Source: Kondoa subrosea (taxonomy: Eukaryota). Taken from it: a stretch of 64,000 nt of DNA. Below are positions 2,387 through 42,672 of this stretch, piece after piece. The notes under the pieces are model-generated. The model did not search any database and had not been told where the DNA came from. It was given only the letters and a program-made list of their open reading frames with translations. The position numbers and the translations under genes are program-made. The stretch covers positions 3,267,564-3,331,563 of the forward strand of contig BCIN01000002.1 of the NCBI GenBank assembly GCA_039545335.1, given 5' to 3'. How positions within the stretch are numbered: position 1 is the first letter of the stretch; each line of letters starts with the position of its first letter.

Positions 2387-4438
2387 TCATGATCCGACTC
2401 TGCATGAACAGCCAGACCATTTTCCTGGGTCCGCCTTATCACAGTATTCATTCGACTGGGCCACGCATCGCACACCATTAGGTTTGACCGTGCAATCATC
2501 CAGTTTAGAACCGCAAGAAGTATCTTCCTTCATACTGGTACACCCGACAGCTCCGCCTGGGGAGACATAACCCTGCTCGTGCATTCAATACTTTCTTCTT
2601 CAGTCAGCGCTGAATAGACTTACAGCTCCGCAGGCATTGCATGATTGCCCATCAAAGCCAAAGTTCTTGTTACAATTCGCAAGGCAGACACAAGCCAACC
2701 TTGATTTCCCGTCTGATTGCGAACTGCATACTTGCTGATTGAAACCTAGCGAGACCATGCACCCAGAACCACTTGCGTTTTCTGGAGTTGTGCATTTGTT
2801 CAGACTACTTCCGCAATGATCGGTCGAACTGGCGTCGAGGCATTTGGTAGAATCTAACGGGTCCGCGACGAACCCCTGGCTCTGTATATGAGAACGTTGA
2901 GTGTTTCTCGCGGCAACTCATCGAGAAAGCACCTCATCGCAAATCTGCATTGCACTTCTTTTAATATTTGTGCATAACGGAATTAAGAAAAGACGTACAC
3001 ATTTGCCATCCTTGTTCATCATATTCTTTATTCAAAGCATGTCATATTAGTATTAACACAAATGCTGAGAGTAGAAGGTCAGACTTACCTTTCCACATGT
3101 GATTGGAGCACACGAATCCCCGTTGAGTGTATATCCATCGTTGCAGTCAGCGATACAAACACAGTTCAGTCTCGCAGATTTGTCCTGAACATCGGAGCAT
3201 TTCTGGTTAGAAGTCAAAGAGGCCACACAAGAAGCAGATTCGGCATTATCGGGTTTCTTGCAAGGATTTGCACTTTGACCGCAACTATCGTTGGAGCTGG
3301 TGTCGATGCACTTAGTTTTGTCTGCCGGATTCTCAGAGTAGCCAGCACTCTACGAGTCCAAGCGGAAATAAGACACGGCAGATGGACCAAACAAGGCAGC
3401 TTACTTGGTCGCAGACCTGGGCGAAGTGATGAGCATGATATCGCAAAGATATTCAAGCAGCACTAACACATGTATTGTCCTTGTTGATCATTCCCTAGCA
3501 ATGCGCCGAGTGAGCTCAAATGGGCGAGGTACATGGCGAACTTACATCTGAGCAAGTCAAAGTAGAAGAAGCTGCGGCAGTTGCAGATGCTGAGCTTGAA
3601 GGCGCTGGATTAGAAGGTGCAGGTACAGGTGCAGAATTTGCTGGACATTGGGCGCTGATCTGATCGGGCGTAGACTTGGAAGTCCAATCGGAGCAAGGAT
3701 GGTTAATTTGATTTTGAGGTTGAGTTGAGTTTCCCCATTCGATCGGAATCATGTTGTCCTGGTTGTTCCCTCCTTTAGCCGTGCGAAGCTGGTCCATGGC
3801 GGACTTAGAGAGAACCAAGTCGGTGGGACCGTAGTTGGAGTCAGTAAAGGCATCGGCAACGGTAAGCTGGTTCAACATGTTCAACATGAGTTGAGCACCA
3901 GATGAGCAAATGATGGGAATCTTACCTCCAATGCAGTGGCTGTGCCAGGTAGATATACTGTTATGCGAGCACCACACCATCTAGATGCCTACTATCAGAT
4001 ACAGCAGGGAAGAGCTGCAATTGACTGACTCGCCAGAGATCTATTGAGCGAATGAGTTTACGGACAAAATGCAGAAGATGGCATCTGTTCCTACCTGATC
4101 AACGCTCGTAGGCGGATTCTGAGTACGCCCAGCTGCCGTCCAAAGGGACACGTGTATACCTACCCCTGTCAGCGAGAGGTAAGGTAATTAATCGGTCCCT
4201 TGTAGACAATGGACCTACAAGCGCTACTATCGGCATTGAAGCAGCCGCATTTGCCCATACTACGAGATACAGCATCAGCAGCTATATTACAGTGGCAGCA
4301 GATATTCTACCTATTGCACTGAGTCGACGTCCAGAGAGCCTTGCCTTGATAGCGAGATCCGTCTCTGCGCTGTAGCGCGGGTCCAGCGCCTGATGCATAA
4401 TGAAAGACAGAGATGAAGAGAAAGAAGAAAGAGAGCAT
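2387..4438 (-). CDS. Secreted RlpA-like double-psi beta-barrel (expansin/barwin-like) protein with S/A/P linker and three Cys-rich repeats
   Basis: Signal peptide MLSFFFLFISVFHYASG, then GKALW...GKCGCFN..., CIGGKIPII and LTVADA...DLVLSKSAMDQL...IPIEW (DPBB-like). A PAPSSSASATAA linker follows, then three Cys-rich exons (about 3089-3348, 2623-2882 and 2387-2584). Confidence 0.65.
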
Positions 4439-23951: not shown

Positions 23952-25781
23952 ATGGCCTCGATCACAAGGAAGCAGCGACCTTTGAAGCCTGCTTATCGGG
24001 AACTGAGTGACTTGGAAGACTTCGAAGATGATCTGCCTGACTTGGACTCTCTTTCTCTCGCTGAATGCCTCAAGAAAGCTCAGAAAGTAGCTGTCGTAGC
24101 CAATCCTCAATCTCAAAGTGCTGCAAGCCCGAATGACAAACAAACAATATCAGACAGCGAAGTGGAAGCGCCCTTGCTGGATTTCTCTCCCACTACTTGT
24201 CCAGTGCAATCTAGTCCTTCGCTGGACTCCCTATCCTCTGCCAGATCAAGCAAATCTCTGCCCTATGCTAGCGATAATGGGACAATCTCTGATAGCGAAG
24301 CTGAAGCGCCTTCACTCGAATCCTTATCAACTGCTCCTTCTATTCCAATAGCTTCCACATCTCAATCAGTAACGAAGACTCCAGCCAAATCGGTCAAGAA
24401 AGCTCGAGCCAAACGAAGAGTGACCATCATCACGCTATCGAGTGATTCAGAAGATGATTCTCCTTTGCCCAATTCCTCGCCAAGACGTCGACCAGCTATT
24501 CCTTCTATTCCTCAGCTGCCTACACGAAAACCTCTGGTACCACTGTCAAGCGAAAGTGAAGAACCAAACGTCCCCTCTCTGGCTGCTACTTTCTCGCCCA
24601 AACGGAAAACTGTCGCTACTTCCGTCCCCGCTACTCCTTCTTCTTATCGCAATTCTCATTTGAGCGACTCAGAGTAAGTTCCGCCGGAAGTACCTGCTGA
24701 ATTGTGCTGAATCTGTCTGAGTAGTTCTGACGATCCTCTTAGAACACCTCTACCACCTCGAATAGCTCCCACTGACAATAGAAAGACATCTATTCCTGCA
24801 TCAAACTCAACTCTTCCAGACAAGCAAAAGACTCCATTACCGGCCTTTGAACTTTCAACAAGGGAAAACACTCCAATCCGCGAACGATCTCAATCTATTC
24901 TTCCACCGTCTTTATTCCTAGTCTTTGATCCTTCAAATAAAACTACACCACGTCAACCTTCCCAACCTCCACCTCCACAAGCAACGGCGCGGAAGATAAA
25001 AGCAACACCTTTGAAATCCCTTTCCGTACCAAAACAGAAATCATCTACTTCTTCTTCTCCTGTTATTAAAAGAGGTAGTAAGAAGAAACAAGCTGAAGAA
25101 TGGTCTAAAAAAAGGGATGAAATTTGTCAAATTCTGATATCGGATTTAGAGAACAAAGTTTTTGGGAATGATGTTTTACCTGATGATATGGAATTGGTTT
25201 GGAGTAAAAGATTGAATACTACTGCTGGAAGAGCAAGATGGAAACGAATCAGATTAGGGGATGGAAATTGGAGACATGAAGTTAAAGTTGAGTTGGCTAG
25301 TAAAGTGCTTGATACGGAAGAGAAGTTGAGGAATACTTTGGCTCATGAGTTATGTGTAAGTCAATCCAGTATTTGAGGGTAGATGAATTGAAAGGCTGAT
25401 CAGTAAGTCGCAGCACGTTATGAGTTGGGTTGTCGGCGAACCGGAAATCAAGCAAAGCCATGGTCCAAAGTTCAAAGATTGGGGCCAGAAAGTCATGAAG
25501 GCTTTTCCTGATATCACTGTGCGTATATAACACACGATAAAGTATGATGACTTATCCAAAGATTGACAGATCTCGACAAGACATTCGTATGAAATCGATT
25601 ACAAGTTTCGCTGGAAGTGCACTACTCCTCATTGTACCAAGATTTATGGTAGGCATTCAAAGTCGATAGATCCGAGCAAGCAAGGTGAGTCAAGGTTTAC
25701 CGGTTCCCCCTTTTGGTGCTCACGGAGTCTTCGCAAACAGGTTGCGGGTTGTGTCGCGGCAAGCTAGAACTAATCCAGTGA
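23952..25781 (+). CDS. SprT-like metalloprotease with a long acidic disordered N-terminus (GCNA/ACRC-like)
   Basis: WSKRLNTTAGRA, VELASKV, LRNTLAHELC/H (HExxH split by an intron), HGPKFK.W, HSYEIDYKFRWKC...C.KIYGRHSKSID and CGLCRGKL. Confidence 0.88.
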
Positions 25782-27074
25782 AATTTAGGAATCGTGTATG
25801 CATCGTAATGATGAGTTTAGCATACCGTATAATCAGACAGGACGAACTTAATAAGTTAATTGAGCAAGTCCCTTCGGAACAGCGAGCGAATTGCCAAAGC
25901 AAGTCCAGAATTCTATGATCCTTATAGTGGCACAGTAGAAGCGCGACTCGAAGCTTCTGCTCCCGATTGTCGCGGTTGCCAGCAACTAGCCTTAATATGA
26001 CAATGCGCAGGGTACACACTACTATGATGCGATTCACTGCTCTCGCTAAGTCTTCCTGATCTTTGTGCTTCTACAAGCGCCGTCCGGCTACGGCGTTCTC
26101 GTTCAGCCTGCTCTCGACCGTTCCTTTCAAGTCTCAAGTTGCTTTCGGACTTCGCGCGCAATAATCTTTGGTCTCCTTGGTATATCTATTATGGTCGCTG
26201 CCTATCATTACTGGGCAACTGCCTTCCCTTTTCGCACTCGCGCGTTTTCAAGATCTCGTCATAGCTGTTTTCCTCTTTAGCAAGCTAACCAAGCTTTCAC
26301 CTCTCAGCAACCTTTTGGGCAGCAGAACGCCAAAACGAACGTCTTTACGCTCATCAGACACTGCAGTCGAGCATGCACTTGCGGCTGAAGATTATTTTCA
26401 CACACAGTGAATGCTTGCGATAATCTTCAGTCAATGTGTGACGTAAACGAGGTGCTTTGGTCAAAGCGACACAAGTGTGGACTGTCTAGTAAAGCTGAAG
26501 TCTCCGAGGCTGAGCTCATACCGGACAATGCTTGGTGTTGTCGTAGACCAGTTCAAGCTACGCAGTATGAATTAGGGTCGACCAGACTTCGCTATCAACC
26601 GTTTCTGGGGACGAGAAAGCTACACCTTTGCTTCAACGCTCTTCCTTTCATCTTATTGCCTTTCAAACTAATCTCCCAGTAGAATATTTCACTTATGTCG
26701 CTTTATGGTATATCACTACAACTACTTAAAGCGAATGTCAGTCTCATATAATATGTCTGTCATTACGAGTACGCAGTGTCTTGCGCTACCGCTAATCGCA
26801 AGTCTTCGTCTGTCAACATTTGTTTTCACCTTACTTGAATCCATTTGTGCTTTGCTCTACTTTCTCCTCTGTACCTGCCTATCTCATTTCAATCATACTC
26901 TCAAAGATCATTTGTACCTGCTGTACTTTCTTTTGGCTTCCCGCTCACGCCTCAAACGAGGCTTAAACACGCGACTTATCGACGTCAATATCAAACAAAT
27001 CTATAAATAGCCCCATTCTTACGTTTCATCAAACCTTCTTTCCTCTTTTCTGCAAGCGACCACATAGAGCGTCA

Positions 27075-28258
27075 ATGGGTCTCTTCAATAAAGAGAAGAA
27101 TACGCAACCAGTCACTGCAGAAGGCCAAGTACAGCAGAGAAATTATGGACAACCCAGACATCATTTCACCATGGGAACTTTCTTTAAGCTGTATTGGAGC
27201 GTAAGCCTTTTATGTTGTACGGGAGAATTCAAGCAGCTCATACGAACGGCGTATAGGAATTGTTATTCAGTAAGCAGTGCATAGTAGTCTAAGTCAATTC
27301 TGCGCTGACGTCTCTCAATAGTGGCTGTAGGATTCGTCAGATCGCTTACCAATCTCAGCTGATACCTTTATGATAAGGCTTTGGGCGCTGTGTAAGTCAC
27401 TTGATTGATAGAGTCAATGTCGCTGATTTAATTGACACAGCGGTTTGGGCGTGTATGTCTCGTGCTGGATGGCTTGTCAACTGCTCACTCTCATCATTAA
27501 CAGATACTTTGCACCACCAGCTCCATCTAGATCATTCCCTATCGAGTTGTCAGTACTTCCAGGTCCAATGTTGAGTAATATTGATGGAGGATCTAGTCGC
27601 GATGGAGAGTTGGTCTACCCTGAATTTGGATATCCTTTGCGCAAGAACATCATTCCCAGTCAGTTGTCGCTTTTTAGGTTTTTGCGAAGTACTGAAATTC
27701 TGCTTTAGTTTGGGCAGCGTGAGTACACGGCAGATCGAGACATATTACATACTGACTTGAATATAGTGCTTTATTAGCTGCTCTGGTACCAATGGTAAGC
27801 GTTTTTGCTATTATTCTGGGGCACTTGTTCATCAGATGTTTAGTTCTTCTATGCTCTGTTTGCGATCCGCTTCAAGTCTTTCCAAGCTTTCGTCGTTCCG
27901 ACCATGGCTACCCTTATGTCCCTCGTCGTTGCTGCCATCTTCCAGGTCTTCTTGAAATGGTAAGTACTAACTTCTCCTTGTACACACTCCTTTGAACTTC
28001 AATGATAGGTTGATTGGTGGTTTAAGGTCAGCTCAGGTTGGTTCTCTAATGCGATATCGCTGAAAAGTGTATCTGCGTTGTCAGACCTGTGAGCCATGAT
28101 CGTAAAACCTATTCTCTTTCCCTGATATCAACTCTAGCACTTCCTCAGTGTCTGCAAACCAAATGTCATCTTCCCTGGCAGCGGAGACGGTTGGCAAATG
28201 GGCTACTACAGACGAGACGTGTGCACCGGTGACGTGAAAGAGTCGGTACAATCCTTCC
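27075..28258 (+). pseudogene. PAP2/DPP1-like lipid phosphate phosphatase, 5' half, interrupted
   Basis: PAPSRSFP, DGELVYPEFGYPLRKNIIP, IFQVFLKW/LIGGLR/P/HFLSVCKP and VCTGDVKE. The reading then switches to unrelated sequence before the PSGH motif. Confidence 0.85.
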
Positions 28259-28482
28259 TCATTGATCCAAGCGAGTATATTAATCCACCTTCTCCTACTT
28301 CTCTGTCGCCTGAAGCTCAGCATGGGTTGGAGTCTTTCGACAACCTATATTGGCCAGGACAGGAAATTTCTAATGCTCAATCGCTTCTAGGCATGATTCG
28401 AATGCTCGTAGGTGAACCAGGAGAAGGTCGAGCAATGAATACCAAAGCTTATGGCAATCTGGTACAAGACGGGATCTCCTGT

Positions 28483-29571
28483 TTACTCTCGCTTCCGACG
28501 CTTACCCGACATTATGCGTCGAATGTTATCTTGTTCCCTCTTTCCCAAAACCTGTTCCGATTGTCCTCGAGTTTTAGCATTGTTTGCAGAGTAGCATGTA
28601 TCGCAAGAGCCACATTCTGTGAATTGTGATTGCTTGAGACGTTTGACTTCTTCGTTCCCGTTGTTATCTTCTTCCTCATCAAAGTAGTCCAGTCCATAAT
28701 TGACTGTAATTTCTTCACCTGGCTTGATTTCGCGAATAGCTTTCAATAACAACTTTCCCTTCTCTCTCGTGAATTTCGCGTTAGGTCTGCAGTCGCTTTG
28801 AGCAAATCGACCCGGCCCCTTGACCAATATGTTACCTACTTTGTGTCAGCTTGTTCATTTTCATGCTTTCCACTCACCTTGCTTTGTCTTTAGAACTGAG
28901 AAATCTTTGCCCTGCTTCTCAAGCCATAGAGTCTCATCATATGTTTCTATATCAGACTCGCCGTTCTTCTTCTTTTCCCCTTCGCTGACAGATTCGGTTG
29001 TTCCCCGCTCTTTCTTGTGTCCTTGCAGATGCACTACGACCTCGTGCATATCAACAATGACTTCGTCCGCTGCGAAGCCCTTTTCGGCAGTCATCTTGAT
29101 TTCAAATCTCTTGCTATACCGTCCATCCTTCGATAGTCTGATAATCCGGTTTCTCTTGTTGACTGCAAGAAACCACAGCTTGCAGTCGCTGGGATGTCAT
29201 CAGCCACGACTTCAAGACCACTCTCACTGGGCAACTCACGTTTTGAGCACTTCTTCTGCTCGTGCTCGTTCTTCCTCCCTAATGGTATCGTTGATTCCGC
29301 TTTCGGTAAATATGTTCATAGACTCTCGGAACGCTTGCAACGCTATATTTTCAAATGCCTCATAATCCCCAGCTCTTATGCCTTTGTATGCAAAACTTGA
29401 ACTTTTCTTGGCTTTCATTCGTCTTGTGAAGGGCGAGCAGCGTATGGCACTCGGTCCATTGCTTCTGTGCCGCTTGCTATTGACAAAAAGGGCTACTAAG
29501 AAATCGTCTGTAGCAGCAGAGACAAATGTATCAGTGGACAGCATCTTGCGATTTGGGGAGTAACGAGGCAT
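28483..29571 (-). CDS. Divergent Set9/KMT5-like SET-domain protein (3 exons)
   Basis: ATDDFLVALFV (Set9 N-terminal-like), KDFSVL, GPGRFAQSDCRPNAKF, AIREIKPGEEITVNYGLDYF and post-SET ECGSCDTC. The two introns splice in frame. Confidence 0.8.
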
Positions 29572-30189
29572 TGTTGTGTAGATCTGAGTGCTGAGAAGCA
29601 GCAATTGCATTGTACTGTTGTACATTATGACCCCAATGACGCTATCGCTCCACCTTTGTGCCTTTGCCCCAATCGCTTTGCTTTCTTCTTCCGCAGCGGT
29701 CAGTCCCTCATACGAGAGCTGCGCAGTGCTGGTCATGGCTGCCTTTGTCATCTCTGAATGCCTTACACACTCTCCACTCTGCGTTTTCTCCCCTCCTGAA
29801 TACCTTTTACCAGGGGCCAAACTCTCAGTGAGGGTCGCAGAGTGCTGTTGTGTTCTGGCTATTTTGATAGGCATTGGCTAGGTGCTTTGATCTTGCAGAC
29901 GTCACTCTGTTGTGCTGCTACAAACTTCGGCTTCTCCCCTCTGACAACAGTGTTATTGTACCTTGCAAGGGGTTTTGTCAGAGGGTCGGAGGCAGCACAG
30001 CTCATGGCTGAAGTTCGGTTGAATCATCTACAGTAGCTTAATGTTGGCCAGCCAGCTCTGGTCTTTCAGCGCTTTTTGGCTATCGAGTCCAAACCTTTCC
30101 ACCACTACTTCAATGCTGTGTAGGGTCAAGTACCATGTATGTATTACTCGTATTCAAGAAGAACAGGAGAGCCGAGATGGATTCGACAG

Positions 30190-30958
30190 ACTCGTTTATC
30201 ATGAAGCCTGCTGGAGGAACAAGATTCATGGAAGTCCAAGTGGAAAAAGCTGCTGTGAGATTGGCCGAATTGGTTGGCTACATATCAGCTGGTACCACTG
30301 AGTCAGTCTCTGTTTGGAACTCAACAAACTTATACACTGACAATGTGAGCAGATTCTTGTATGAAGCCGCTACAGACTCTTTCCACTTTCTCGAACTCAA
30401 TCCTCGTCTTCAAGTCGAGCATATTACAACAGACATAGTCTCTGGTGTCAATTTGCCAGCCGCTCAAATTCAAATTGCTATGGGTTTACCTCTTCATCGC
30501 ATCCGCGATATTCGAACACTTTATGGCGTCTCACCTCATGGCGACAATAGGATCGACTTTGTTTCGCCGATGACGCTTCTTCTGAACTACAAAGGAAACC
30601 TTCTCCTCACGGTCATGTCGGAGCTATCCGTATTACTGCAGAAAATCCAGATGCGGGATTCAAGCCTTCTTCCGGAACGTTGCAAGAACGAAGTGATTCA
30701 AGGAAGAACATGGTTGTTGCTTTGAAGGAATTGTCTATTCGTGGTGATTTCCGGACAACGGTCGAATACTTGATCAAGCTGTGAGTATCAGTATCAAGTG
30801 CAATGAAAGAACAAGCTGAAGGATGTTATACAGATTGGAAACGGAAGCTTTCGAATCCAACACAATCACTACTGGATGGTTGGATAACCTCGTCTCAAGT
30901 CGTCTGACAGCTGAACGACCAGAAACTACTCTAGCGGTCGTTTGTAGTGCTACAATAA
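30190..30958 (+). pseudogene. ACC1: Acetyl-CoA carboxylase (biotin carboxylase region) fragment with internal deletions and a frameshift
   Basis: [90 protein letters not shown] and NTITTGWLD. No start or end, and conserved blocks are missing. Confidence 0.92.
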
Positions 30959-31728
30959 CTGCATCGAAACTGTGCTTCTCATCGTTCCAAAGTACGACAC
31001 AGGATAAAACATCGGCTTGTATAGAATCCAATTGTTGTACGATCTCGGTCGAAGCAGGTGAAGCACTCCATGTTCCAACGCAAAATTCCAGTAAAGTTGC
31101 TATCAGAAGTTTCCATTCGTCTAGAAGATCTGAAGGAAGTACTACTTGTGTGAAGATGTTCCCGGAAGAGGGGACATCTGAAACCGGTCCTTGAGTGGTC
31201 TTCCATAATTCTGGATCTCCAGCTGAACAAGCCAAAGCACCACCTGCACGAATTTGAAAGGTAATATCGTGTGAGATATGTTGTGATGGATCGTAGCAGT
31301 CGACACAGAGGAAAGAAGCTTCGTCGTGTCCGCAATCTCTGCAATGCCTTCGTCAGCTTGACGGTATTGCTTTGAAGTCTGCCTCACTGACCGACAAGCA
31401 TATACACCTTGACCTTGTTTGAAGATATGACCGCATCTATTCCTTTTTACCTTTGAGCTCATCTCCTGCTGTTGCCTGCTTTGTAAAGTCCAGTCGAGCG
31501 GCACATTTGGTTGCGAGAGTATAGACAATCCAGGCAAGATCTCCGGCGACTCGCGCAAGGTTCAAGTAGACCAGAGTAAAGCACATGTCTCAAAGCTTGA
31601 ATAACGCCTGCTGTAGCTCCAGAGTAATCTGCAGCTTCACGACATTGCGCTTGAACTTGAGCCAATGATGCACGCAAGGCCGAAATAGATGAGAGCGGTC
31701 CTCCATGAGAGCTGTCCGAAGTATCCAT
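30955..31728 (-). pseudogene. UBR1: N-terminal fragment of an N-end-rule E3 ligase (UBR box + start of the ClpS-like domain)
   Basis: RCGHIFKQGQGVYACR/DCGHD...LCVDC...H.SH...GDPELWK and VVLWNDEKHSFDAVI. Frameshift near 31550; truncated against the ACC1 fragment. Confidence 0.85.
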
Positions 31729-32998
31729 GTCTAGCTTCGAGCTTCTTGTCTAATCCATCGCGGTTTGACAGTAACAACCAGACTTGGACTCCAAGTCTTG
31801 CTCTCTTCAAAGTGTTGTTAGCTCCGCTTCATCTCAACCAAAGCTTGCTCATACAAGCGCTTTCCACTATCTCCTCTGACTCTGTTTCTTTCTCCATATT
31901 CCCGCTTCTGCAGATACATCATCAGGGAAGTACAAACTTTCTGTAAAGTCACTCGATTGATGCCTATAAGTCGTGGACTCTGTTCTCTTTGCTGCGTGCA
32001 GTAGATTTGCACGTCTCATCCGATTCCTCCATGGTCTCAAGTCTTTCTGCTCTTCACCTCTGCATGCTTCATCTGGTTTCTTGGTGCTATCTCTCACCGA
32101 TTCCCATTACTTTTTATATCGATAGCTACCGCTCAAGCTCTCCCGAGCAAGAAAATATCAATTATTTTAACACTAATTCTTTTGTCACTACTCGATCTTG
32201 CTCGATTTTGCAGAACTATCCTAATGAGCAAGGACTCACTACATCGTCTTCTCTGCTCCTTCTCCTTCTTCATGATCCTCTCTTTCATATTTGATCTATA
32301 GAACCAGAAGAGAACAAAGGCACATCGGTTTATTGTTACTCCTCCAAGAGATAGCTGTACTTCAGTGCAGCTATCTCTTGAAGACTTCTCAAAGTGCCTG
32401 CGCGCTAAAATACAACATCGACACAAATTTGGTTCATATGCCAAAGGTTGATTCGCATTCTTTGGCATGCCTGGCTGTTCGTGAGCAGGCCGGGTCCCTT
32501 GATATTATTGAGGCACTCCTATCGTTGCTGGGATTGGAGAAGTGCCGCAATGAGTGTAATTGATCGATTAATAAAGTCAATTCACTAAGGCTTTCGCAGT
32601 ATCGCAAATCACCTGATCCCCAAAAGGAGAAGCGAACCCTTACAGTCACATGCGGATACGGAACCAGGTCCTAAGGATGGTCGGGAGTATTGACAAAGTT
32701 GAACAAGTTAACCGTAAGCACAAATGCACTCAAAGACAATGATTTGCAAACAAATATATCTGCAACCTGTCAGGATGCGGCGTCTGTCACGCCAGGCTCG
32801 TTCTGATGCCTCGAGAGTAAGGTCCTCTATTATGTTCTGTTCAGTTTCGTTTCCTGTCTACAAGTAAGGCTGTTTGCCTCTTCATCAAACTTTGGTCACC
32901 TATTTCCACTGTTTTGGACTGTCAAAAGTATTAAAGAGATTGCAGGCTGTCATAGTTATTTACAATGAGTCATCTTGTCTCGTATCGAACACCTGAAT

Positions 32999-35900
32999 TT
33001 ATCGACCAAATCTGGGTGCGTAGAGCTTGGCGCAGATCGCACTCTCCACGGCCCTGAATTCGTTGACGTGCTCCAGAGAAGCATTTGCTATCATCTTGTT
33101 GAAGCAGATTAATTGCGTGCAAACCGTCAGCTTGCTCATGTCGAAATCTTCCTGACCGCGTGGAGGAATTGCGAGTAGCCCAGATGCCATAGGAACGTCG
33201 TGATGGCCAGCGAATTTCCCGTTTGATACTGAGATGGCGCTTCGGCTTCGCACACCTTGTTGTCAGCCAAGCACCCGAAAGATGGAATTCAAGAGCTTAC
33301 TGATGCAATACATATCGTGAAGTGCCGTCTACATCTCTTAGGGAGACGCTGTTGATGTGGTGGAGGAATGTAGGAGGAATAATAGTCCAATCGTTGTCGA
33401 ACAATCGATTGCACAGTCGGTAAAGCGTGCTCGTCTTGCCAAGCAAGTCGCTCCAGGTCTTGCTTGCCGTTTCGTCCTGAGCGATCACAATCAGCGAGTT
33501 CGACACTACGCTTACTTCAGGATAGACCCACATCGAGGTAAGGCATAGCGACAGACTTGTTGACCAATTTGCCAGTAGGCATCTCATCCTTGCCAGCGTA
33601 AAGCCCTAGCTGGGAGTAAGCAAGATTGAACGGACAATAAAGGTATCGCTTCACCTTGCGCATGAGCGTGCCAATCTGAAAGATCTTCGTGCAAACGCTT
33701 CCTTGAACCTCTTTCGATAGGGTAAAGAATCGCTTGAGAGAACCCATCAGGCAGACTCTGGACATCCGCTATGATAGAAGCCTTCATTGCGAAAGCTATC
33801 GAAAGATGTTGAGCCGAAGAGCAAAGGCCGATCCAAAGTAGTACGCTTACTAGTTTGTGAAAGACAGCTTTCAACCTCTTCGTTCACTTTGCGCAAAACG
33901 TCTTCCAATTCGTTGGGTGGGACCGCTAAGCGAGCCACAGTAATGTACGGTATTGCATCACGTAATAGCTTCGAGCATTTCTCCAATGACAGCGACAAAC
34001 GATCTATCAGCTGTTTGTCGGCCGGAGAGGCAAGACCGAGATGATTGAGATGCAGCACTGCGTAGGATTGAAGTCAATTTACCACCGGAGCCAGTACGAA
34101 AATTTGACTTACACATGCTCAACAGCTTCCACATGCAAAGAGGATACTTTTCACGGCCCAACGCAACACCGCGCATTACAACAGCAGCGTATTCGGGCGA
34201 AATGAGTACCGTATTCTTTCGCCATACAGCTGCTGGACTACCAACTGTCAGTGTTGGCCTCAAGAGAGGATTGGCTGCACAGAACGGGAGAAGTTTAGCA
34301 GCTCGTCATTACAGCACAAACGAACGAAGCACACAGGCGTTGATGTCTAGCCATTCGCCTGTTTCCGTATCGCGAATGAATTGCGGTCTTGTGACGTCTA
34401 ACGCATCTGTCGCAAGGATATTGAACATATCTTGAGGCTTGGGATGAAGTGCGAGCTGATCAGCTGAAAGTTTGCTGTAGAGGGATTGAGTTCTGTTGGT
34501 TAATTGAGCACGCAAGTAGCGGCCTGCTTCGCTTTCGTGGGCACCCAGATCCTACAACATGTGGTTAGTCAGAACGAACGTTGAGGATTGAAGCACGTGA
34601 ACTGACGATTTTGGGACGGTAAGTGCTGCGAGAAGAACGTCCAGCGCTCTTGCCACGCTTGCTGAAAGCTCGTTCAGCGGCTGCTTTGGCAGCATTCGAC
34701 TCTTTAGCCAATGAGTTGAAAACTTCTAGTAGGCAAGAATCATCATACTGATTCGAATTGTATTAGATGCATCCTAGGTTAGGAGGAATGTGCTCACGAG
34801 AGAACCTTTGTGTGCATGGCCGACCAAACAGCCAACTGGAGAGCCGCACCCATCACAGGGGAATTCACAATCATCTTTCAAGTGCGAATGTCAGAGCAGA
34901 ACGACATCAAAATCAAAACTAAGACTCACCAATTGTATCCTCTTGGTCGTGCATATGTCCACACGGTAATGCTTCAGAATCTTCTTCCAACTCTTCTCGT
35001 AGGTTGAGTATAATGTACGTAATCAATGAAGACCGCAAAGCAACTCTAGTCCAATTGCCTGTCGTCATCAGCATATTGGTGTGCCTTGACGCCTTCTCGA
35101 TCGCTGCGAAGTATCGGATCTCTTCCCCTTTTGGAATATGAACATTGACAGCTTTGAAAGTTTTGATATCCAAGTCGTTATCAATTACCGAGTTGAGATA
35201 CTGCGCTTGACCAGCTCCAATGGATACGACACGGGTCGAACCGATCCTGACGTCTGCTGGAAAATGACCGCGGGTGCAAGCAAATGCAGTCACTATAGAG
35301 AATCGAATTAATAAATGCCATCTCTAGAATCTGAGAAACTCACGAGAAAGCATCTTGCGTGAAGTCCCCACACTCAGGTCTCTGATCATGGCAGCTCGAC
35401 GGAGACCGATGTCCGGACTGAGAAAGGCACATCAATCAAGCATCTCTCCAGGTAATGGTTTCACTCACATGTCTTGATGGCGCTCATATAGATAGACCAT
35501 CTTCTGTGCGAGCACACTTTCCTTGCGCCGCTGAACATCATCTTGCTGGACGACTTTCGGTACATCCAACGAATAATCTTGAGCTTTCCAGACAAAGCTT
35601 TTAATACAAAGATCATTCAAGCTGACATCGGCAGGGATAATGTCTTGAGCTGAACTTGATCTTTAGAATACCTCTGCTTGAGACAGTAATATAGGACTCA
35701 CCGGCATTCATCGCAACAGACCATCTGAAAGCGCCATTTTGAGTTTGCAGTTCATATATTACACCTTCTGGAAGCCCACGATCATGACGATATAGACGAG
35801 GTAGACCAACAGAAGCCGATTTGACGGCTGAGCTGTTGTTTCCCAACTTGAAAACTCCGGGAAAGTTGGCATCGTAAATGTAAAGTAGAATAGATCCAAT

Positions 35901-37408
35901 CTCTTTCGCAGTAATAGGCTGTTGTAACAGTGAGATAGAAGTAGACGCATTTTCAATGAGCCTGCTCACATGACCGTCTAAAGCTGCTTGCATTGCACCC
36001 ATACCGGCCAAGTGTTTCATAATCTTTTTGTCAGAAGCCGAAGGAATTTGAGAGGCTTCAGCAGTGGCCACGGGTCTCGGTACAGTTGCAGATTTCTCAT
36101 TCTGCATCTCATCGCGGGGCCAGCAATGGAGTTGTTCTAACATGCCGGTGGGATTCTTCGAAGTTACTTTGCTCTTTTTGTCACGTAGGCTATAAGAGAA
36201 TGGAGCAGTAGCCTTCTCAAATTGGTATTGTTCATTGCCAGAATTCTTCTTCAATAGTTCGGCTTTGAAGGCGCCAGGGACTTCAGTAAGCAAGAGTTGA
36301 GCATAATCAGACGCTTCGAAAGGTGAGGGAGGTTTGTCAGGAATAGATGATAATAAGGTAGATGTAGAAGAAGGAGTTTTACCAGCTGTGAATCTGGCAG
36401 ACCACTTTTCAGAGAGCGATTTGCGAGTTGTGAGAGAAGTCATTTCAGTTGAAGAGCCAGCTACAGGTACATTCGGCCGCTTGAGTGTGTTAGCATCGTT
36501 GGAGGAGGCTTCTTCTTCGGTTGAAGAGGGGTCGGCGCGAGCTAGACGCAGAGAACTCAGGTCAGACGCGTGAAGTGCAACAAGCTACTCACGTATGCCT
36601 TGAGTGAAAAACGGTCCATACTGTAATTGCGTATCTAGAGTTTGCGCAGTATCGCCTGAGAACAGAAGCGCGACTGAAGTCTGAGTGGATAGAAATTCTG
36701 CTCAGGATCCAAAGTGAGAGACAAACTCGATATTCGGACTACAGCATACCTTCAGCGGCTTGTACAGCTTTCGATTTCGCAGCCGCCTGCACAGATGAGG
36801 CAGAGGCGGATCAGCTATCGGAGATGCAAAATCAAAAAACTCCACTAACCTGGGCCGAAATCTTAGCCGACTTTCCTTCTTTGTTTTCTTCTTCTTCTTT
36901 CGCTGTTAGCGAGGAATAACTGGAATCAGCAGCTTTCGATGACCTAAAAATGGCAGACGAACTATTGGCATCAACAGCTATTTCTTCATTTCCATCAGTA
37001 TCCTCTTCAGCTTGATCCGGATCATTTGTGGCGGCGTCCTGTAGCACAGTTGTTTGACTTTGACGGCAGTCAGATCACGAGGCAAAGGTGACGAACCCAA
37101 GTTTCAGTGTTGGTCAATTCTGAAGCCTTTTGCTCTTCGAATCCAGTGATGACTGGTCTACAACACATAGAGTGAGCAACGATCATCTAGCTAGTCCAAC
37201 CTGCTCAGCAAACCCACTCGTCTGTGACTTGTTCTAAAATTTCAAAAGCGCGATTCAGGTCGCCTTTTGCTTGCTATTTGATCGTCAGTCATCGCTCACA
37301 GACCGTCTAAAGCTCACGAACGATGAGAGCTCTTGCCATTTCGTCTTTTGTCGGGTTCCTAGCAAAGACGTTGGCAATTTCTTCTAGGCTGTCCATCTTG
37401 CTTTCCAT
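32999..37408 (-). CDS. Large multi-exon orphan protein (~1100 aa) with a UBA-like N-terminus
   Basis: A chain of open exons bounded by canonical splice sites runs from MESKMDSLEE...ARALIV/KGDLNRAFEILE to ...KLYAPRFGR*. No recognisable catalytic family. Confidence 0.65.
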
Positions 37409-37542
37409 TTGTTGTTTTTGTTGTAGTTGTTTGTGTTTGTGTTGGTGTTGGTGTTGGCGTGTACTGTCTCTTTATAGCGTATCAGGCTGTTGAAGAGAAA
37501 GTTTTGTCGATTTTTTTCGAATTCTTTCCTCTTCTTGCAACA

Positions 37543-38573
37543 ATGGCTTCTGCTGATGAAGTGAGAAAAGCTCTTGTCCGAATGAAAGCTGATATTGAAG
37601 TAAGCTTCCTCGGCTGCGAATTGACATGTTCCTTCATTGATGAGCGCCTCTAAGGCTCAAAATCCCGCTTACGATCCTGAAGATCTCTGGAAGAATGGTG
37701 CTTCTTTGCTCGTCCGCGTCGACGACTCGCACGAATTGCTGTCTAGTATCCTTGACGCTCTCAGTCAGCACAAGCTTGTTAGAGCTGTCAAGTTGCTTTG
37801 CGAGCTCAAAGACGCTTTCCATTCTAAAACTCTTTCTGCCGATACATCTTATTATGGATTCGCTATGTGCACTTTTTTGGAAGGCGTCCTAGCTGAAGAA
37901 TTGGATGATATCAAACAAGCTGCGCGCTGCTATGCTGATGCTAAAGATTTACTTCAAGAGATGCTACGCGAAACTCGCGTTATGGACTTCTTTGGGCAAG
38001 TCGGAAAGTTGCAGGACATCGTAGATGTATCCTTATCTCGATGCAGTAAGCATGCCTTTGCCTTATTGCGAATGTCCACTCACGCCTGTTCCTCAGACGC
38101 TGGCCTCGACCTGGTGGTCAGTCACAATGAGGTGGCTACTGAAGCTGATCACGCTCAAGGTAAGTCTCTCTTGGTATGTTAATCGCAGTAGACTGATTTG
38201 CTCGATAGTCGCGAAGAATGTGGAACCTTCTATTACACAAGCTGCGGGTGTTGACGCTGTGCCTACCACTCCTTCCAAAGGTGTGCAGCCTATTCTTCTT
38301 TTGCGCAGAACACCAGCTGATTACCCTTCTGAATGAGAAGACACGAGCTATGTAGAAGTTCTCTCGTCGGAATCGGAAATGCTGGGGCTTCCAGCTTTTG
38401 GTGCCAACACCGGAGGTCGGTCGCCCTTCCCTGTCCAGTTTGACACATTGTTTGACTGGTGTGATGCAGATACCAGCTCACGGCGCACCCGGCGAATTCG
38501 TCAAACAACTTCGGAATCTGAAGCTAGCGACATGCCCATTCCCAGAACCCCGGAAAAGAAGCCAAGAGCTTAA
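37543..38573 (+). CDS. Orphan helical protein, divergently transcribed from the previous gene
   Basis: MASADEVRKALVRMKADIE/AQNPAYDP..., a 181-aa helical ORF, and later exons ending PRTPEKKPRA*. Confidence 0.55.
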
Positions 38574-38799
38574 GTCAAGTCCTGCTAGTATCTCGAACGT
38601 AATCATTGTCTGCGTTCAGCGCTCAGCGCAATCATTTTCCGTCCGGTTTCCAGTTCTCTTTCTGTGCCCTTCTTTCTTATCTTTGCAAGGATCTTCTTAA
38701 TTCTCCGTATGTCGATGATACGTCTGAGATGCCGCTTTCAACCATCTCTTGGTGTCATTGAAATCGAAAACGGGCGAGCAACAGTGTAACCTGTGCACT

Positions 38800-39140
38800 A
38801 GCTATCTTGTCTTTACCTCTGCGATGTTCTTCTTGAGCACGGCTGACTGGGCTGGCTTCCTCTACATCGGCGTCTGGTTCAACGCCTTTATGCAGATCTT
38901 TGCAGACTACCGACCTTCAATGTTGAAGCTCGTTTTCTTTTTCGCTCCTTTGCTTGGCGCGACTTTAATCTGTGGGAATTTGACGATTGATGAGCTTTGA
39001 TCGGCTCTTTTGCGCACTGGCTGCTTATCGTATGATCTACATGTCGATCTTTGTGAGTGCTTCGCAGCTATATTCAGAGTCTTGACTGATTTGACCTGCG
39101 CAGGACTATCGTGTCAACCACATCGCTCTTCCAACTTCTG
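38800..39140 (+). pseudogene. Second, diverged PAP2 C-terminal fragment (intron-poor, internally deleted)
   Basis: STADWAGFLYIGVWFNAFMQIFADYRPSMLKLVFFFAPLLGATLICGNLTIDE joined directly to LIG..CALAAYRMIY..IF/DYRVNHIALPTS. The HxWxDxxAG catalytic segment is missing. Confidence 0.85.
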
Positions 39141-40054
39141 GTACGCCGGCACCTTGTATATTGTGGCTCATGAGCTGACCTCAATTGATAGATCTTGAAT
39201 CCTTCCCAAGTGGTAAGCCTATCTGCTTGAAGTGCTTTGCGTTGGTACTCATCTGCTCGATACAGGGCACTCAACCGCGTAAGATCTCTGGGTCGAAATC
39301 GTGCCGTCACTGACCGCTCTGTCAGTGCTTGGGCTGGTTTCCTCTTCTTGTCGATGTGGTTCAACTCTCATCTCAAGATCTTCGCCGACTATCGACCTTC
39401 CATCTGGAAGATGACTTTATTCTTTGCTCCCTTACTTGGTAAAGGCTTTTCTTGAAAGTCAATTTGCTTCGTTCTGACTTAGGCTTTTCTTAGGTGCTGT
39501 TCTCGTCTGTGGATCTTTGTAAGTCATTATCAAGGTATCATTTCACAGTGCTTAGTTTCCCTCTAGGACCATTGACGAGTTGTAAGTTGATTTTCAGAGA
39601 CATATGCCTCTGTTTCTGACATTCCTGTCTTTGACAGTCACAACGTGAGCATTCTTCCCTGAGTGCTTACAGGAATTGACAACAGCGTACAGTGGTACGA
39701 CACCGTTGCTGGAGCTTTGATCGGTAGGCACTTTCGTCCTCATCACCACCTCAGGCTAATCTTCCTTTCTTCAGGTGCTTCATGCGCGCTGGCTGCTTAC
39801 CGAATGACCTATGCTGCAATTTTCGTAAGTCCTATCTCTGGAATTGGACACTAGCTGATGCTTCATGCCAGGACTATCGAATCAATCACATTGCTCTGCC
39901 TACAAGCGATCGAGGTCTCTGGGCGGCTCCAGCAGGTCACGGTGTCAAAGGTCTCACTCTCAATCAACCTTACGGTATGGCTGGAAACGGTATTGCTCAG
40001 AATGGTGGTGCTGTGGAGATGCATCAATCGAATGGTCATCAACCGGTCGTTTGA
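39141..40054 (+). pseudogene. PAP2/DPP1-like phosphatase, 3' half (intron-rich)
   Basis: Intron 39141-39191, then LESFPS/GHSTA/AWAGFLFLSMWFNSHLKIFADYRP...TIDE/HN/WYDTVAGALIG...DYRINHIALP...HQPVV*. There is no adjacent 5' half. Confidence 0.85.
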
Positions 40055-40908
40055 GATTTCTGGTCGGAAGCAAGGGAGATAGGGATACCCACAACAGATA
40101 CACGATTACTATAAGTTATTAGGTTCTTGTAATGCAGACTCGGGAATTCATCTTGTTCATCCATTGCATTTATTTCGACAGAGGCTTTATCTTGTCCACG
40201 ACAGTCTCTAGCCTCAAGCTCTGCATAATATCCTCTAGTTAAAGAGTCGGCTGTACACGCCTTGCTTTGTCTAGGAGCCTATCCTGGATTCCGCCTGGAC
40301 GTTCGAAAGAGAGGTTCTTTCAACTCGCAAGCAATGAATACTGTCACTCCATAAATGCTACTTGAAACAAGTCCATTTGGGAACAGCAGGTCGTGATCAA
40401 TCCATATGGCTCATATGACAGCCGATCAAGCCATGTCACTACTCCGAAGGATGAATCTCGTTATCTGGAGTTGTCTTGAGTCCATCACCTACAGCATGGC
40501 TTCAGTGCTAATGGTCGTCTGTCAAGCTATCTGACTGCTCATCTGCTCCCTTTGATTCGATGGCCTTTTCTTTCTTCTCCTCGAGCATTCTTCCTCGAAG
40601 CTGTATTACATTGCTGCCAACTTTCACCCAGTTATGGGTCAGCAGATGAGCAATAGTCATGGTGGTCCCCTTGTATTTTCACCGAGCTTGCTTAGTCCTT
40701 TCGTTGACGGTTTCTGCATGGGTTTCTGTTCTTTGATTGCTCAATCTCTATAATTCAGCGTTCATTTCTCTCTTTCTCTCTTGACCATATCCATCTCTCT
40801 TCCATCTTCTGTCGTCTGTCAGCAGCATCCAATTTCGTCGAATCATATCCATACATGTAAGTCTCTTCTTCCTAGACTCTCCTGTCATCTCTGAGTGCCG
40901 AATACAGC

Positions 40909-42672
40909 ATGCTAAACGATGCTGAAGTTTATACTGGGGAACAGCTTGAGAATGCGCTTCAGGGCAAAGTCTACCGACCTCGGGAGCAGGAAGAGCTTCG
41001 CCGTTTGGTCGGCATGTCGGATTTGCCGCATAATTTGGAAGATGTAGTGACAGGGATCAACAATGGTATGGCATCAGCAATCGCTTTCGCCCACCTTCGT
41101 CCGAAAGACCTCTTTACCGTGCCGAAGCTCAAAGTAAGTCTTTGGCGGCGTTATGGGCCGGATCAAGCTGAGTTGCTCTTCAGGACGCAATAAAAGTTCT
41201 CAAGGTTGCTGTTCGACAGCGTCGCTCTGAATTTGAGGTTTATTCTCTCAGTTCCAATATAATTCCTTCCCCGACTGACTTGTTTGAAAGTTGACCCGAC
41301 TTCAACGCGGCATTACTGTAGCCGTATGCAGATTACTCCATTTCAATAGCCTTGATCATGAAGACTTATGCGGTTCAGGTTGATGCAAAATCTATGACCA
41401 CTCCAGCAACGGATTTGGCTGTAGAAATTGCTCATACTCATCAAACTGCTTATAGAGTCTATTATGCAGGCTTCTGGGAAGACTTTAAACACGATTTGGA
41501 ATTGGCGGTCGCTGGCAATGCATTGCTCGAGCAATTTCTCGCGGGAAAGACTCCTGAAAGTTTGAAGGTATATACGGGCAATTAGCAAACCGTCATCGTA
41601 CTAAAATATCTGCTTCCACAGAAGCATATCTATGGGGATCGAGTTACCGCTTTGAAGTTGTCGAAGAACCCGTCGGTATCTCAGCATGAGGTAAGAGCCA
41701 TTCGAAAATGGTCGAATAAGCTACTGACATAGGACCACAGCCAACTGCACTTCCCGGATCTTCAGCACAAGGCCATAACGTACAGCTCCTCTTCTCGCGC
41801 AATGTCACGAAGGTGCTAAAATAGTTTGCAGCAGCACTTTCCTAGTCAAACGCCTAAAGTATTATGTTGCGAAGTGTGATCGGGCGTGTCTGATATAAGT
41901 CTGATACAGGGACCTACCTGTCATGTTATTGGCGATTACAATGCAACGGAGCACTTCCTCCATGAAATGCAAGAACAGCTTCGCGATCCCAAACAAGACA
42001 ACATGGATATGGATAAGCAAATTGCGGCAGTGCAAGCTTTAGCAAGCAAGTACGATATCACAAACAGTATCAATGAGAAGCACGAGAAAGTGTTCAAGTT
42101 CACGAAACAGGACTATATGGTACGCTCTTCCTGCTCTGACATTTTAACTTGAACATGAACTATATTGGTTCAACAGAATTGGGTGCTCAGGAATAAATTG
42201 TACTTACCAACTCCCAATATCCTCCCTTACCATCGACCTGGAACAATTCCTCCGCTGGCGACTCAGAAGACCCATTTCGATGGCGATATGTTTTTGGTAC
42301 AAGATTATTTGCATGTCCAACGTGCCTATATTCAGCATATTCTGGAAAAAAACCCACATGTATGCTCCGAAACCATGCTATTGTTGCTCAGATGTCTGAT
42401 GCCTTTCAATTGCGATTGGCCAGGTAACTGACGAAGCAGCAAGAAGAGCTCTTCTTCATGAACAGATGACATCATCGAAGCTCCAGGCGTTCTACAACAA
42501 CAGCACTCACCCGTATGCTTTCAATGCCAATGCAATTACCAACAGTGTCAATGCTGGCCAGCAACACTTTGTCAACCCTCACTTGGCAGCGGCTCCTGTC
42601 AATCAACCCCATGCCGTACCTCTCGCCAATCTGGCAGGCCCGCGTCACATCGGAGCACCTCCTCCAAAGTGA
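40909..42672 (+). CDS. Multi-exon orphan protein
   Basis: About 9 open exons with GT..AG boundaries (MLNDAEVY..., KTYAVQVDAK..., GPTCHVIGDY..., NWVLRNKLY..., ...GAPPPK*). The start may lie further upstream (~40634). Confidence 0.6.

Follow-up and report, generated by a model that had tools for sequence, protein, structure and literature searches.

What divided a PAP2 gene of Kondoa subrosea into two pieces separated by ~11 kb of other sequence, and was the intervening DNA a mobile element? The question is raised by a stretch of 64,000 nt (assembly GCA_039545335.1, contig BCIN01000002.1, positions 3,267,564–3,331,563 of the forward strand; hereafter the window, whose first letter is position 1), in which the two parts of the gene, designated PAP2-A, flank a block containing three apparently intact genes and broken pieces of ACC1, UBR1 and a PAP2 paralogue (PAP2-B). 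The structure is real and unusual in detail, and the two parts of PAP2-A are complementary halves of one gene. The reading that we favour, to which we give about an even chance of being right, is that a pre-existing single-copy chromosomal stretch moved passively and as a whole, in a single event, to the place in PAP2 that encodes SFPSGH.

The closest named relative that we found for the split gene is a PAP2 protein of 386 amino acids (aa) from the chytrid Geranomyces variabilis (P0002), which carries domain PF01569 and was used as the query for spliced alignment to the window. Judged by this relative alone, the organism would be chytrid-like. Residues 42–219 of P0002 aligned to positions 27123–28258 with 12 introns of 48–58 nt, and residues 216–331 to positions 39194–39943 with eight introns of 47–56 nt; all these introns are GT-AG, and the alignment revealed no stop or frameshift in either half. 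The gene opens with an ATG at 27075 and closes with a stop codon at 40052–40054, and its cut site is the SFPSGH motif. PAP2 and lipid phosphate phosphatases carry motifs C1 (KxxxxxxRP), C2 (PSGH) and C3 (SRxxxxxHxxxD); the 5′ half of the split gene contains C1, the 3′ half contains C2, and the C3 motif reads SLTIDEFHNWYD both in the window (39519–39700) and in P0002, with leucine in place of the arginine. Most of 14 related metagenome loci (L001–L014) have this leucine as well, reading S/A-L-T-[IL]-D. PAP2-A is also extremely rich in introns, with at least 20 of 47–58 nt, or about one per 15 codons, and its shortest exons are of 4–5 nt (27322–27326 and 28085–28088), 7 nt and 13–14 nt, the tiniest of them coming from the alignment alone. 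The first-pass annotation of this locus had the 5′ half ending just before PSGH (~28258), which the spliced alignment bears out, and the 3′ half resuming at 39141; an intron-dense complementary half is indeed found there, but position 39141 starts an intron-like stretch of 51 nt, and coding resumes at 39192.

A perfect direct repeat of 9 bp flanks the block, in the way expected of an insertion. Both copies of the repeat, AATCCTTCC, are in the same reading frame (..SF..); as a chance control, any 9-mer in common was found in 289 of 20000 random pairs of 65-nt zones. Joining the halves at AATCCTTCC produces KESVQSFPSGHS, with an open frame that is three residues shorter than in P0002 and the 14 related loci. 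The size of ~11 kb first proposed for the block agrees with the distance between the 9-mers (Table 1). The split most likely inactivated the gene. Splicing across the block as a giant intron is unlikely, and we rejected it because there is no donor of the required phase at the end of the 5′ half: the sole GT after exon 13 (GTACAA, 28246) lacks the G at position +5 that is present in 19 of 20 PAP2 introns, and it is a phase 0 donor, whereas the exon at 39192 needs phase 1. The frame of the 5′ half remains open for ~124 codons into the block (28138–28626, plus strand), with a codon score near zero in that part; if transcribed, it would lead to a truncated PAP2 with an unrelated tail.

An assembly artefact, with the halves being adjacent in the real genome, would be one alternative. 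Reads from two runs of one sample, stored as contigs, were examined over positions 25500–41500. Contigs span 25500–28447, 28420–30467, 30763–31011 and 31626–41500 without a single difference, including both outer junctions as well as the inner junctions; those crossing the left and the right junction, again with no differences, are 90,947 nt and 40,221 nt long, respectively. None of the contigs in the two runs skips the block by joining 28258 to 39207. Depth is level (~143 and ~54) over the flanks and the block, indicating that the insertion is not heterozygous in that sample, and about double at 30306–31907. The artefact draws some plausibility from the use of one sample only; the window itself may have been assembled from it, in which case the reads exclude an assembler error without being independent support. 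Nevertheless, with independently built short-read contigs crossing every junction at single-copy depth, we consider it extremely improbable. At a threshold of at least 90% identity, the block is single copy in the reads save for the ACC1 and UBR1 pieces and ~120 nt near 28330–28449.

The three genes of the block were predicted with a simple gene finder limited to the PAP2 intron style, checking the results by eye, and all of them model as intact, as first described. The last exon of the SET-like gene matches PF00856 (E 5.5e-9), and the gene reads AQSDCRPN in place of the usual SET motif, NHSCxPN. Pfam searches with single exons of the 914-aa gene, at relaxed thresholds, retrieved no hit above the cut-off and only CEP76_C (E 0.005) below it. 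Its largest exon, an open reading frame (ORF) of 323 aa, had no homologue among 1.84 billion representative proteins, in a search that takes all lengths, or among proteins of 567–2000 aa, a range that may miss proteins of similar length; likewise, a 134-aa ORF had no homologue among proteins of 236–2000 aa. The predicted fold of the helical exon has a mean pLDDT of 54. Look-alike leads were weak and were set aside (TTC7_N/TPR at 0.92 with low recognition, and another at 0.77). The start codons of the divergent 914-aa and helical genes are separated by 134 nt (37409–37542), which suggests a common bidirectional promoter. The introns of the block genes, of 42–63 nt and mostly with GTGAGT, are like those of the flanking genes and conform to the host style.

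The broken pieces of ACC1, UBR1 and a PAP2 paralogue noticed at first were also found by homology, and the first two have parents elsewhere in the reads. ORF 30042–30722 matches the biotin-carboxylase part of ACC1, and ACC1-like sequence runs on to 30951. This fragment keeps an intron, lacks two conserved stretches (internal deletions, as read from alignments) and has one base fewer than its parent after 30561, where the parent has an extra A, with the homology dropping out of frame at 30561–30563. The UBR1 fragment also has one base fewer than its parent, after 31561, where the parent again has an extra A. The parent contigs are 92.6–95% identical to the fragments (with 15 differences and one gap over 203 nt, 14 differences over 189 nt, and again 15 differences and one gap over 309 nt) and continue with unlike sequence beyond 30951, before 30953 and beyond 31786; one of these second-copy contigs is 7,228 nt long. 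Both pieces are genuine partial copies of genes that reside elsewhere in the same genome, and the introns that they keep indicate that they are decaying genomic copies and not derived from complementary DNA. No direct repeat was found around the ACC1/UBR1 sub-block.

The third fragment, PAP2-B, shows 72% nucleotide identity to PAP2-A over 110 nt and has fewer introns; by manual reading, a deletion of ~31 nt removes FHNWYD and shifts the frame. Processed pseudogenes are characterised by the absence of all introns and by a poly(A) tail, and we rejected this origin for PAP2-B, which keeps the intron before DYRVNH and has no such tail. Additionally, the homologue P0001 is also devoid of the introns that PAP2-B lacks, indicating that PAP2-B has a paralogue-type gene structure. 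No more PAP2 pieces were found within the block.

Table 1. Coordinates of the split PAP2-A gene, the block and its contents (positions in the window; gene models are predicted).
Feature	Coordinates	Strand	Details
PAP2-A 5′ half	27075–28258	+	13 exons, 12 introns of 48–58 nt; C1 motif KWLIGGLRP; ends in ...CTGDVKESVQSF
Left 9-mer, AATCCTTCC	28250–28258		One of only two occurrences in the 64-kb window
Block between 9-mers	28259–39197		10,939 bp; single copy save the ACC1/UBR1 part and ~120 nt near the left end
Duplicated ~120 nt	28329–28449		Second copy elsewhere in the genome; limits approximate, from extra depth; contig diverges after 28449
SET-like gene	28486–29874	-	432 aa in 3 exons (introns 51 and 42 nt) without an internal stop; predicted
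ACC1 pseudogene fragment	30174–30951	+	Yeast ACC1 chain residues ~268–422, then more ACC1-like sequence; left limit approximate
UBR1 pseudogene fragment	30953–31786	-	58 nt upstream of ATG (31728–31726), N-terminus, UBR box, start of ClpS-like domain
Gene-poor stretch	31787–33960		~2.2 kb; no confident gene model, no family match
914-aa gene model	33961–37408	-	14 exons, 13 introns of 48–63 nt; N-terminus UBA-like by eye
Helical gene	37543–38336	+	3 exons, 229 aa; all-helical by low-confidence predicted structure
PAP2 paralogue fragment (PAP2-B)	38836–39178	+	P0002 residues 224–276 and 294–316; own stop 39176–39178
Intron-like stretch	39141–39191	+	51 nt, GTACGC ... CTGAC ... TAG; overlaps the end of PAP2-B, abuts the first 3′ exon of PAP2-A
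PAP2-A 3′ half	39192–40054	+	9 exons, 8 introns of 47–56 nt; starts (D)LESFPSG/HSTA/AWAGF; C2 PSGH, C3-like SLTIDEFHNWYD
Right 9-mer, AATCCTTCC	39198–39206		The other of the two occurrences in the 64-kb window

The fragments and the split gene differ clearly in their state of decay. The former show frameshifts, deletions and 5–7% divergence, whereas the PAP2 halves are undamaged, keeping 40 of 40 splice dinucleotides and an open frame over ~2 kb, which suggests that the mosaic predates the split and arrived as a unit. As a rough estimate, had the halves drifted neutrally over the same time as the fragments (4–6% per site), the survival of all 80 splice bases would have a probability of ~0.01–0.04, indels not counted. 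Following this reasoning, the mosaic of three lineage-specific genes plus old debris from ACC1, UBR1 and a PAP2 paralogue would have been assembled elsewhere first, and this stretch of the organism's own chromosome would then have moved once, as one passive unit, into PAP2, the split being younger than the mosaic. Break repair or replication by the host could have integrated the segment as a linear or circular DNA copy, and the 9-mer would be either the fill-in of a staggered break or a short identity where the incoming DNA and the target were joined; the block genes would be ordinary passengers. Insertional translocation through a circular intermediate is a known relocation route, and it would explain a single-copy segment that moved without termini and with short identity at both junctions.

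The same comparison bears on whether PAP2 was broken long ago and its dead locus then captured one piece of DNA after another until the gap was filled in place. The parts do differ in apparent age, with the ACC1 and UBR1 pieces being ~93–95% identical to their parents and PAP2-B much less so to PAP2-A. However, 20 of 20 introns in the PAP2 halves are canonical and the frame is open, the 9-mer is still perfect, and filler DNA would hardly consist of three multi-exon genes that have promoters of their own; we consider such accretion highly improbable.

The first-pass annotation interpreted the block as a gene-capturing mobile or accessory element whose intact orphan genes may be its machinery. 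Families of transposases, recombinases, integrases, reverse transcriptases and Rep/helicases were matched by none of the 131 window ORFs of at least 95 aa, nor by any of 84 ORFs of the block, chosen from 176 of at least 38 aa; six of these 84 had sub-threshold hits, to unrelated families only. Terminal inverted or long direct repeats were not found at the block ends beyond chance, since the scores of the 300-nt ends were reached by 136 of 300 shuffles (inverted) and 162 of 300 (direct). The right end of the block (39170–39191) contains an 8-bp palindrome, TCAATTGA, and the palindrome AGATCT, and the left end opens with the similar TCATTGAT. Together, the lack of element proteins and of terminal repeats, the single copy and the host-style introns leave autonomous mobility and a foreign origin of the block without positive evidence, and the interpretation as a mobile element equipped with machinery of its own is not supported. 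Nor does a role as machinery find support in the orphans, given a largest exon with no homologue, a sole match to CEP76_C below the cut-off and a low-confidence helical model. The data are explained no less well by a single relocation than by a mobile element.

Mobility could have been supplied from elsewhere, if the block were a non-autonomous cargo transposon, either akin to Pack-MULEs or from a class not yet described, and were moved by a transposase encoded outside it; a 9-bp staggered cut in PAP2 would have led to a target-site duplication, and ACC1, UBR1 and PAP2-B would be captured sequences. Pack-MULEs and Mutator-like elements are recognised by terminal inverted repeats, by target-site duplications of 9–11 bp, those of 9 bp being typical of Mutator-like elements, and by the existence of several copies or of related autonomous elements. 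Like Pack-MULEs and other transduplicating DNA transposons, the block contains fragments of unrelated host genes, three in number and with parents retained elsewhere, inside an insertion with a 9-bp direct repeat that is perfect and confined to the two junctions; also, the contrast in decay suggests that it arrived as a finished unit. Conversely, it has no terminal inverted repeats, its ends being no more alike than shuffled ones, and gene fragments lie near both ends, where the termini should be. Likewise, it is single copy (by depth and unbranched contigs, the reads containing no other copy that reaches 90% identity), no MULE or other transposase-like family occurs in the block or the window, and it is far larger than typical Pack-MULEs, holding whole genes as well as fragments. 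We regard a cargo transposon as rather unlikely.

The block was also compared with other classes of elements. Helitrons have 5′-TC and 3′-CTRR ends, insert between A and T without target duplication and carry a Rep/helicase gene. The block does start with TC, but its 3′ end is ...GATCTTG (or ...CTTGAA with an alternative cut) and not CTRR, there is a 9-bp repeat, and no Rep/helicase match was found in it. Starships, known from Pezizomycotina, carry a DUF3435 tyrosine recombinase, the captain, near one end. The block resembles Starships and further giant eukaryotic transposons in carrying several genes, in interrupting a gene of the host and in having short direct repeats at its borders. However, no captain or other element protein was found among the ORFs examined in the window and the block, which is only 10.9 kb long and lies in a host that looks chytrid-like by its PAP2 relative. 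The block might also be an undescribed non-autonomous fungal cargo element, with no terminal repeats, a duplication or core of 9 bp, and whole genes plus captured fragments, perhaps with a preference for the SFPSGH site of PAP2. Such a preference would explain the presence of PAP2-B at the right end as the transduced flank of an earlier insertion. We regard this possibility as unlikely. A search of the literature on chytrid transposons and gene fragments yielded nothing relevant.

The block has also features of the captured or templated insertions at chromosomal breaks that are described in PMC11724301, as the ACC1-UBR1 chimera consists of two ~0.8-kb pieces separated by no more than one base, each with its parent retained, and the block lacks element termini and element genes. 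Originals persist for ACC1, UBR1 and the ~120 nt near the left end, while no second copy of at least 90% identity exists for the remaining ~9 kb. Conversely, the size of the block and its three intact genes without a second copy are unlike those insertions. A 9-bp duplication is not usual in them either.

The right junction allows a different reading, in which the block is native: PAP2-B would be an old tandem paralogue upstream of PAP2-A, a local rearrangement would have displaced the 5′ half by 10.9 kb, and the 9-mer would be a conserved SF(P) coding motif. The stop codon of PAP2-B is 13 nt ahead of the PAP2-A exon at 39192, which has a good acceptor in front of it (CTGAC followed by 12 nt that end in TAG) and begins with LESF. 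The two codons ahead of the right 9-mer thus read LE, and both ...SVQSF from the 5′ half and LESF... from the 3′ half fit the family consensus S-[LVM]-[EQ]-S-F; additionally, one of the 14 related loci (L013) has an intron directly ahead of SLESMPSGH. A native block would also agree with its single copy and the host-style introns of its genes. Nevertheless, the 5′ half does not end in a donor of the right phase, and this reading needs three junctions versus two for an insertion. The putative upstream extension of PAP2-B to an exon-13-like/FPSG stretch (~38500–38652) was rejected as not significant (217 of 1000 shuffles reach its score), and the additional short words near both junctions (GTATATT, CACCTT and ATTGAT, in reversed order) are only marginal (P ~0.04). 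Overall, we deem a native block quite unlikely.

Several points weigh against the single relocation that we favour. Because of the acceptor, the LE codons matching the consensus and the intron in L013, the 9-mer may be a conserved coding motif common to two PAP2 copies and not a duplication made by insertion. If it is a duplication, a clean one of 9 bp is what a staggered cut of the transposase type classically leaves, and is atypical of capture by end joining. The proposal that the block moved as a unit draws on the decay contrast within this one locus; the same contrast would result if both PAP2 halves were still under selection. Additionally, the 4–5-nt exons of PAP2-A derive from the alignment and may mask an indel, and all the evidence from reads comes from one sample.

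The window is gene-dense eukaryotic DNA of ~45% GC, with very short and uniform introns, and it contains ordinary genes, including those for Cut8, DOT1, DUF1688, SprT-like, eIF2A, Exo70, ferric reductase, GNAT acetyltransferase and GMC oxidoreductase. Far from the block, two neighbouring ORFs on the minus strand (2603–2917 and 3056–3349) share 47% identity across 91 aa and may be a tandem pair of paralogues.

If the block was relocated only once, the locus would be a clean and datable case of a compact fungal genome moving a multi-gene segment and destroying a gene in the process, for which the captured ACC1 and UBR1 pieces offer an internal clock. A mobile block, on the other hand, would represent a cargo-carrying element for which neither termini nor enzymes are known; we know of no such cargo elements in this fungal lineage, although no literature search was aimed at that point. 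Under either reading, the split in PAP2 provides a handy presence/absence marker for the comparison of strains.

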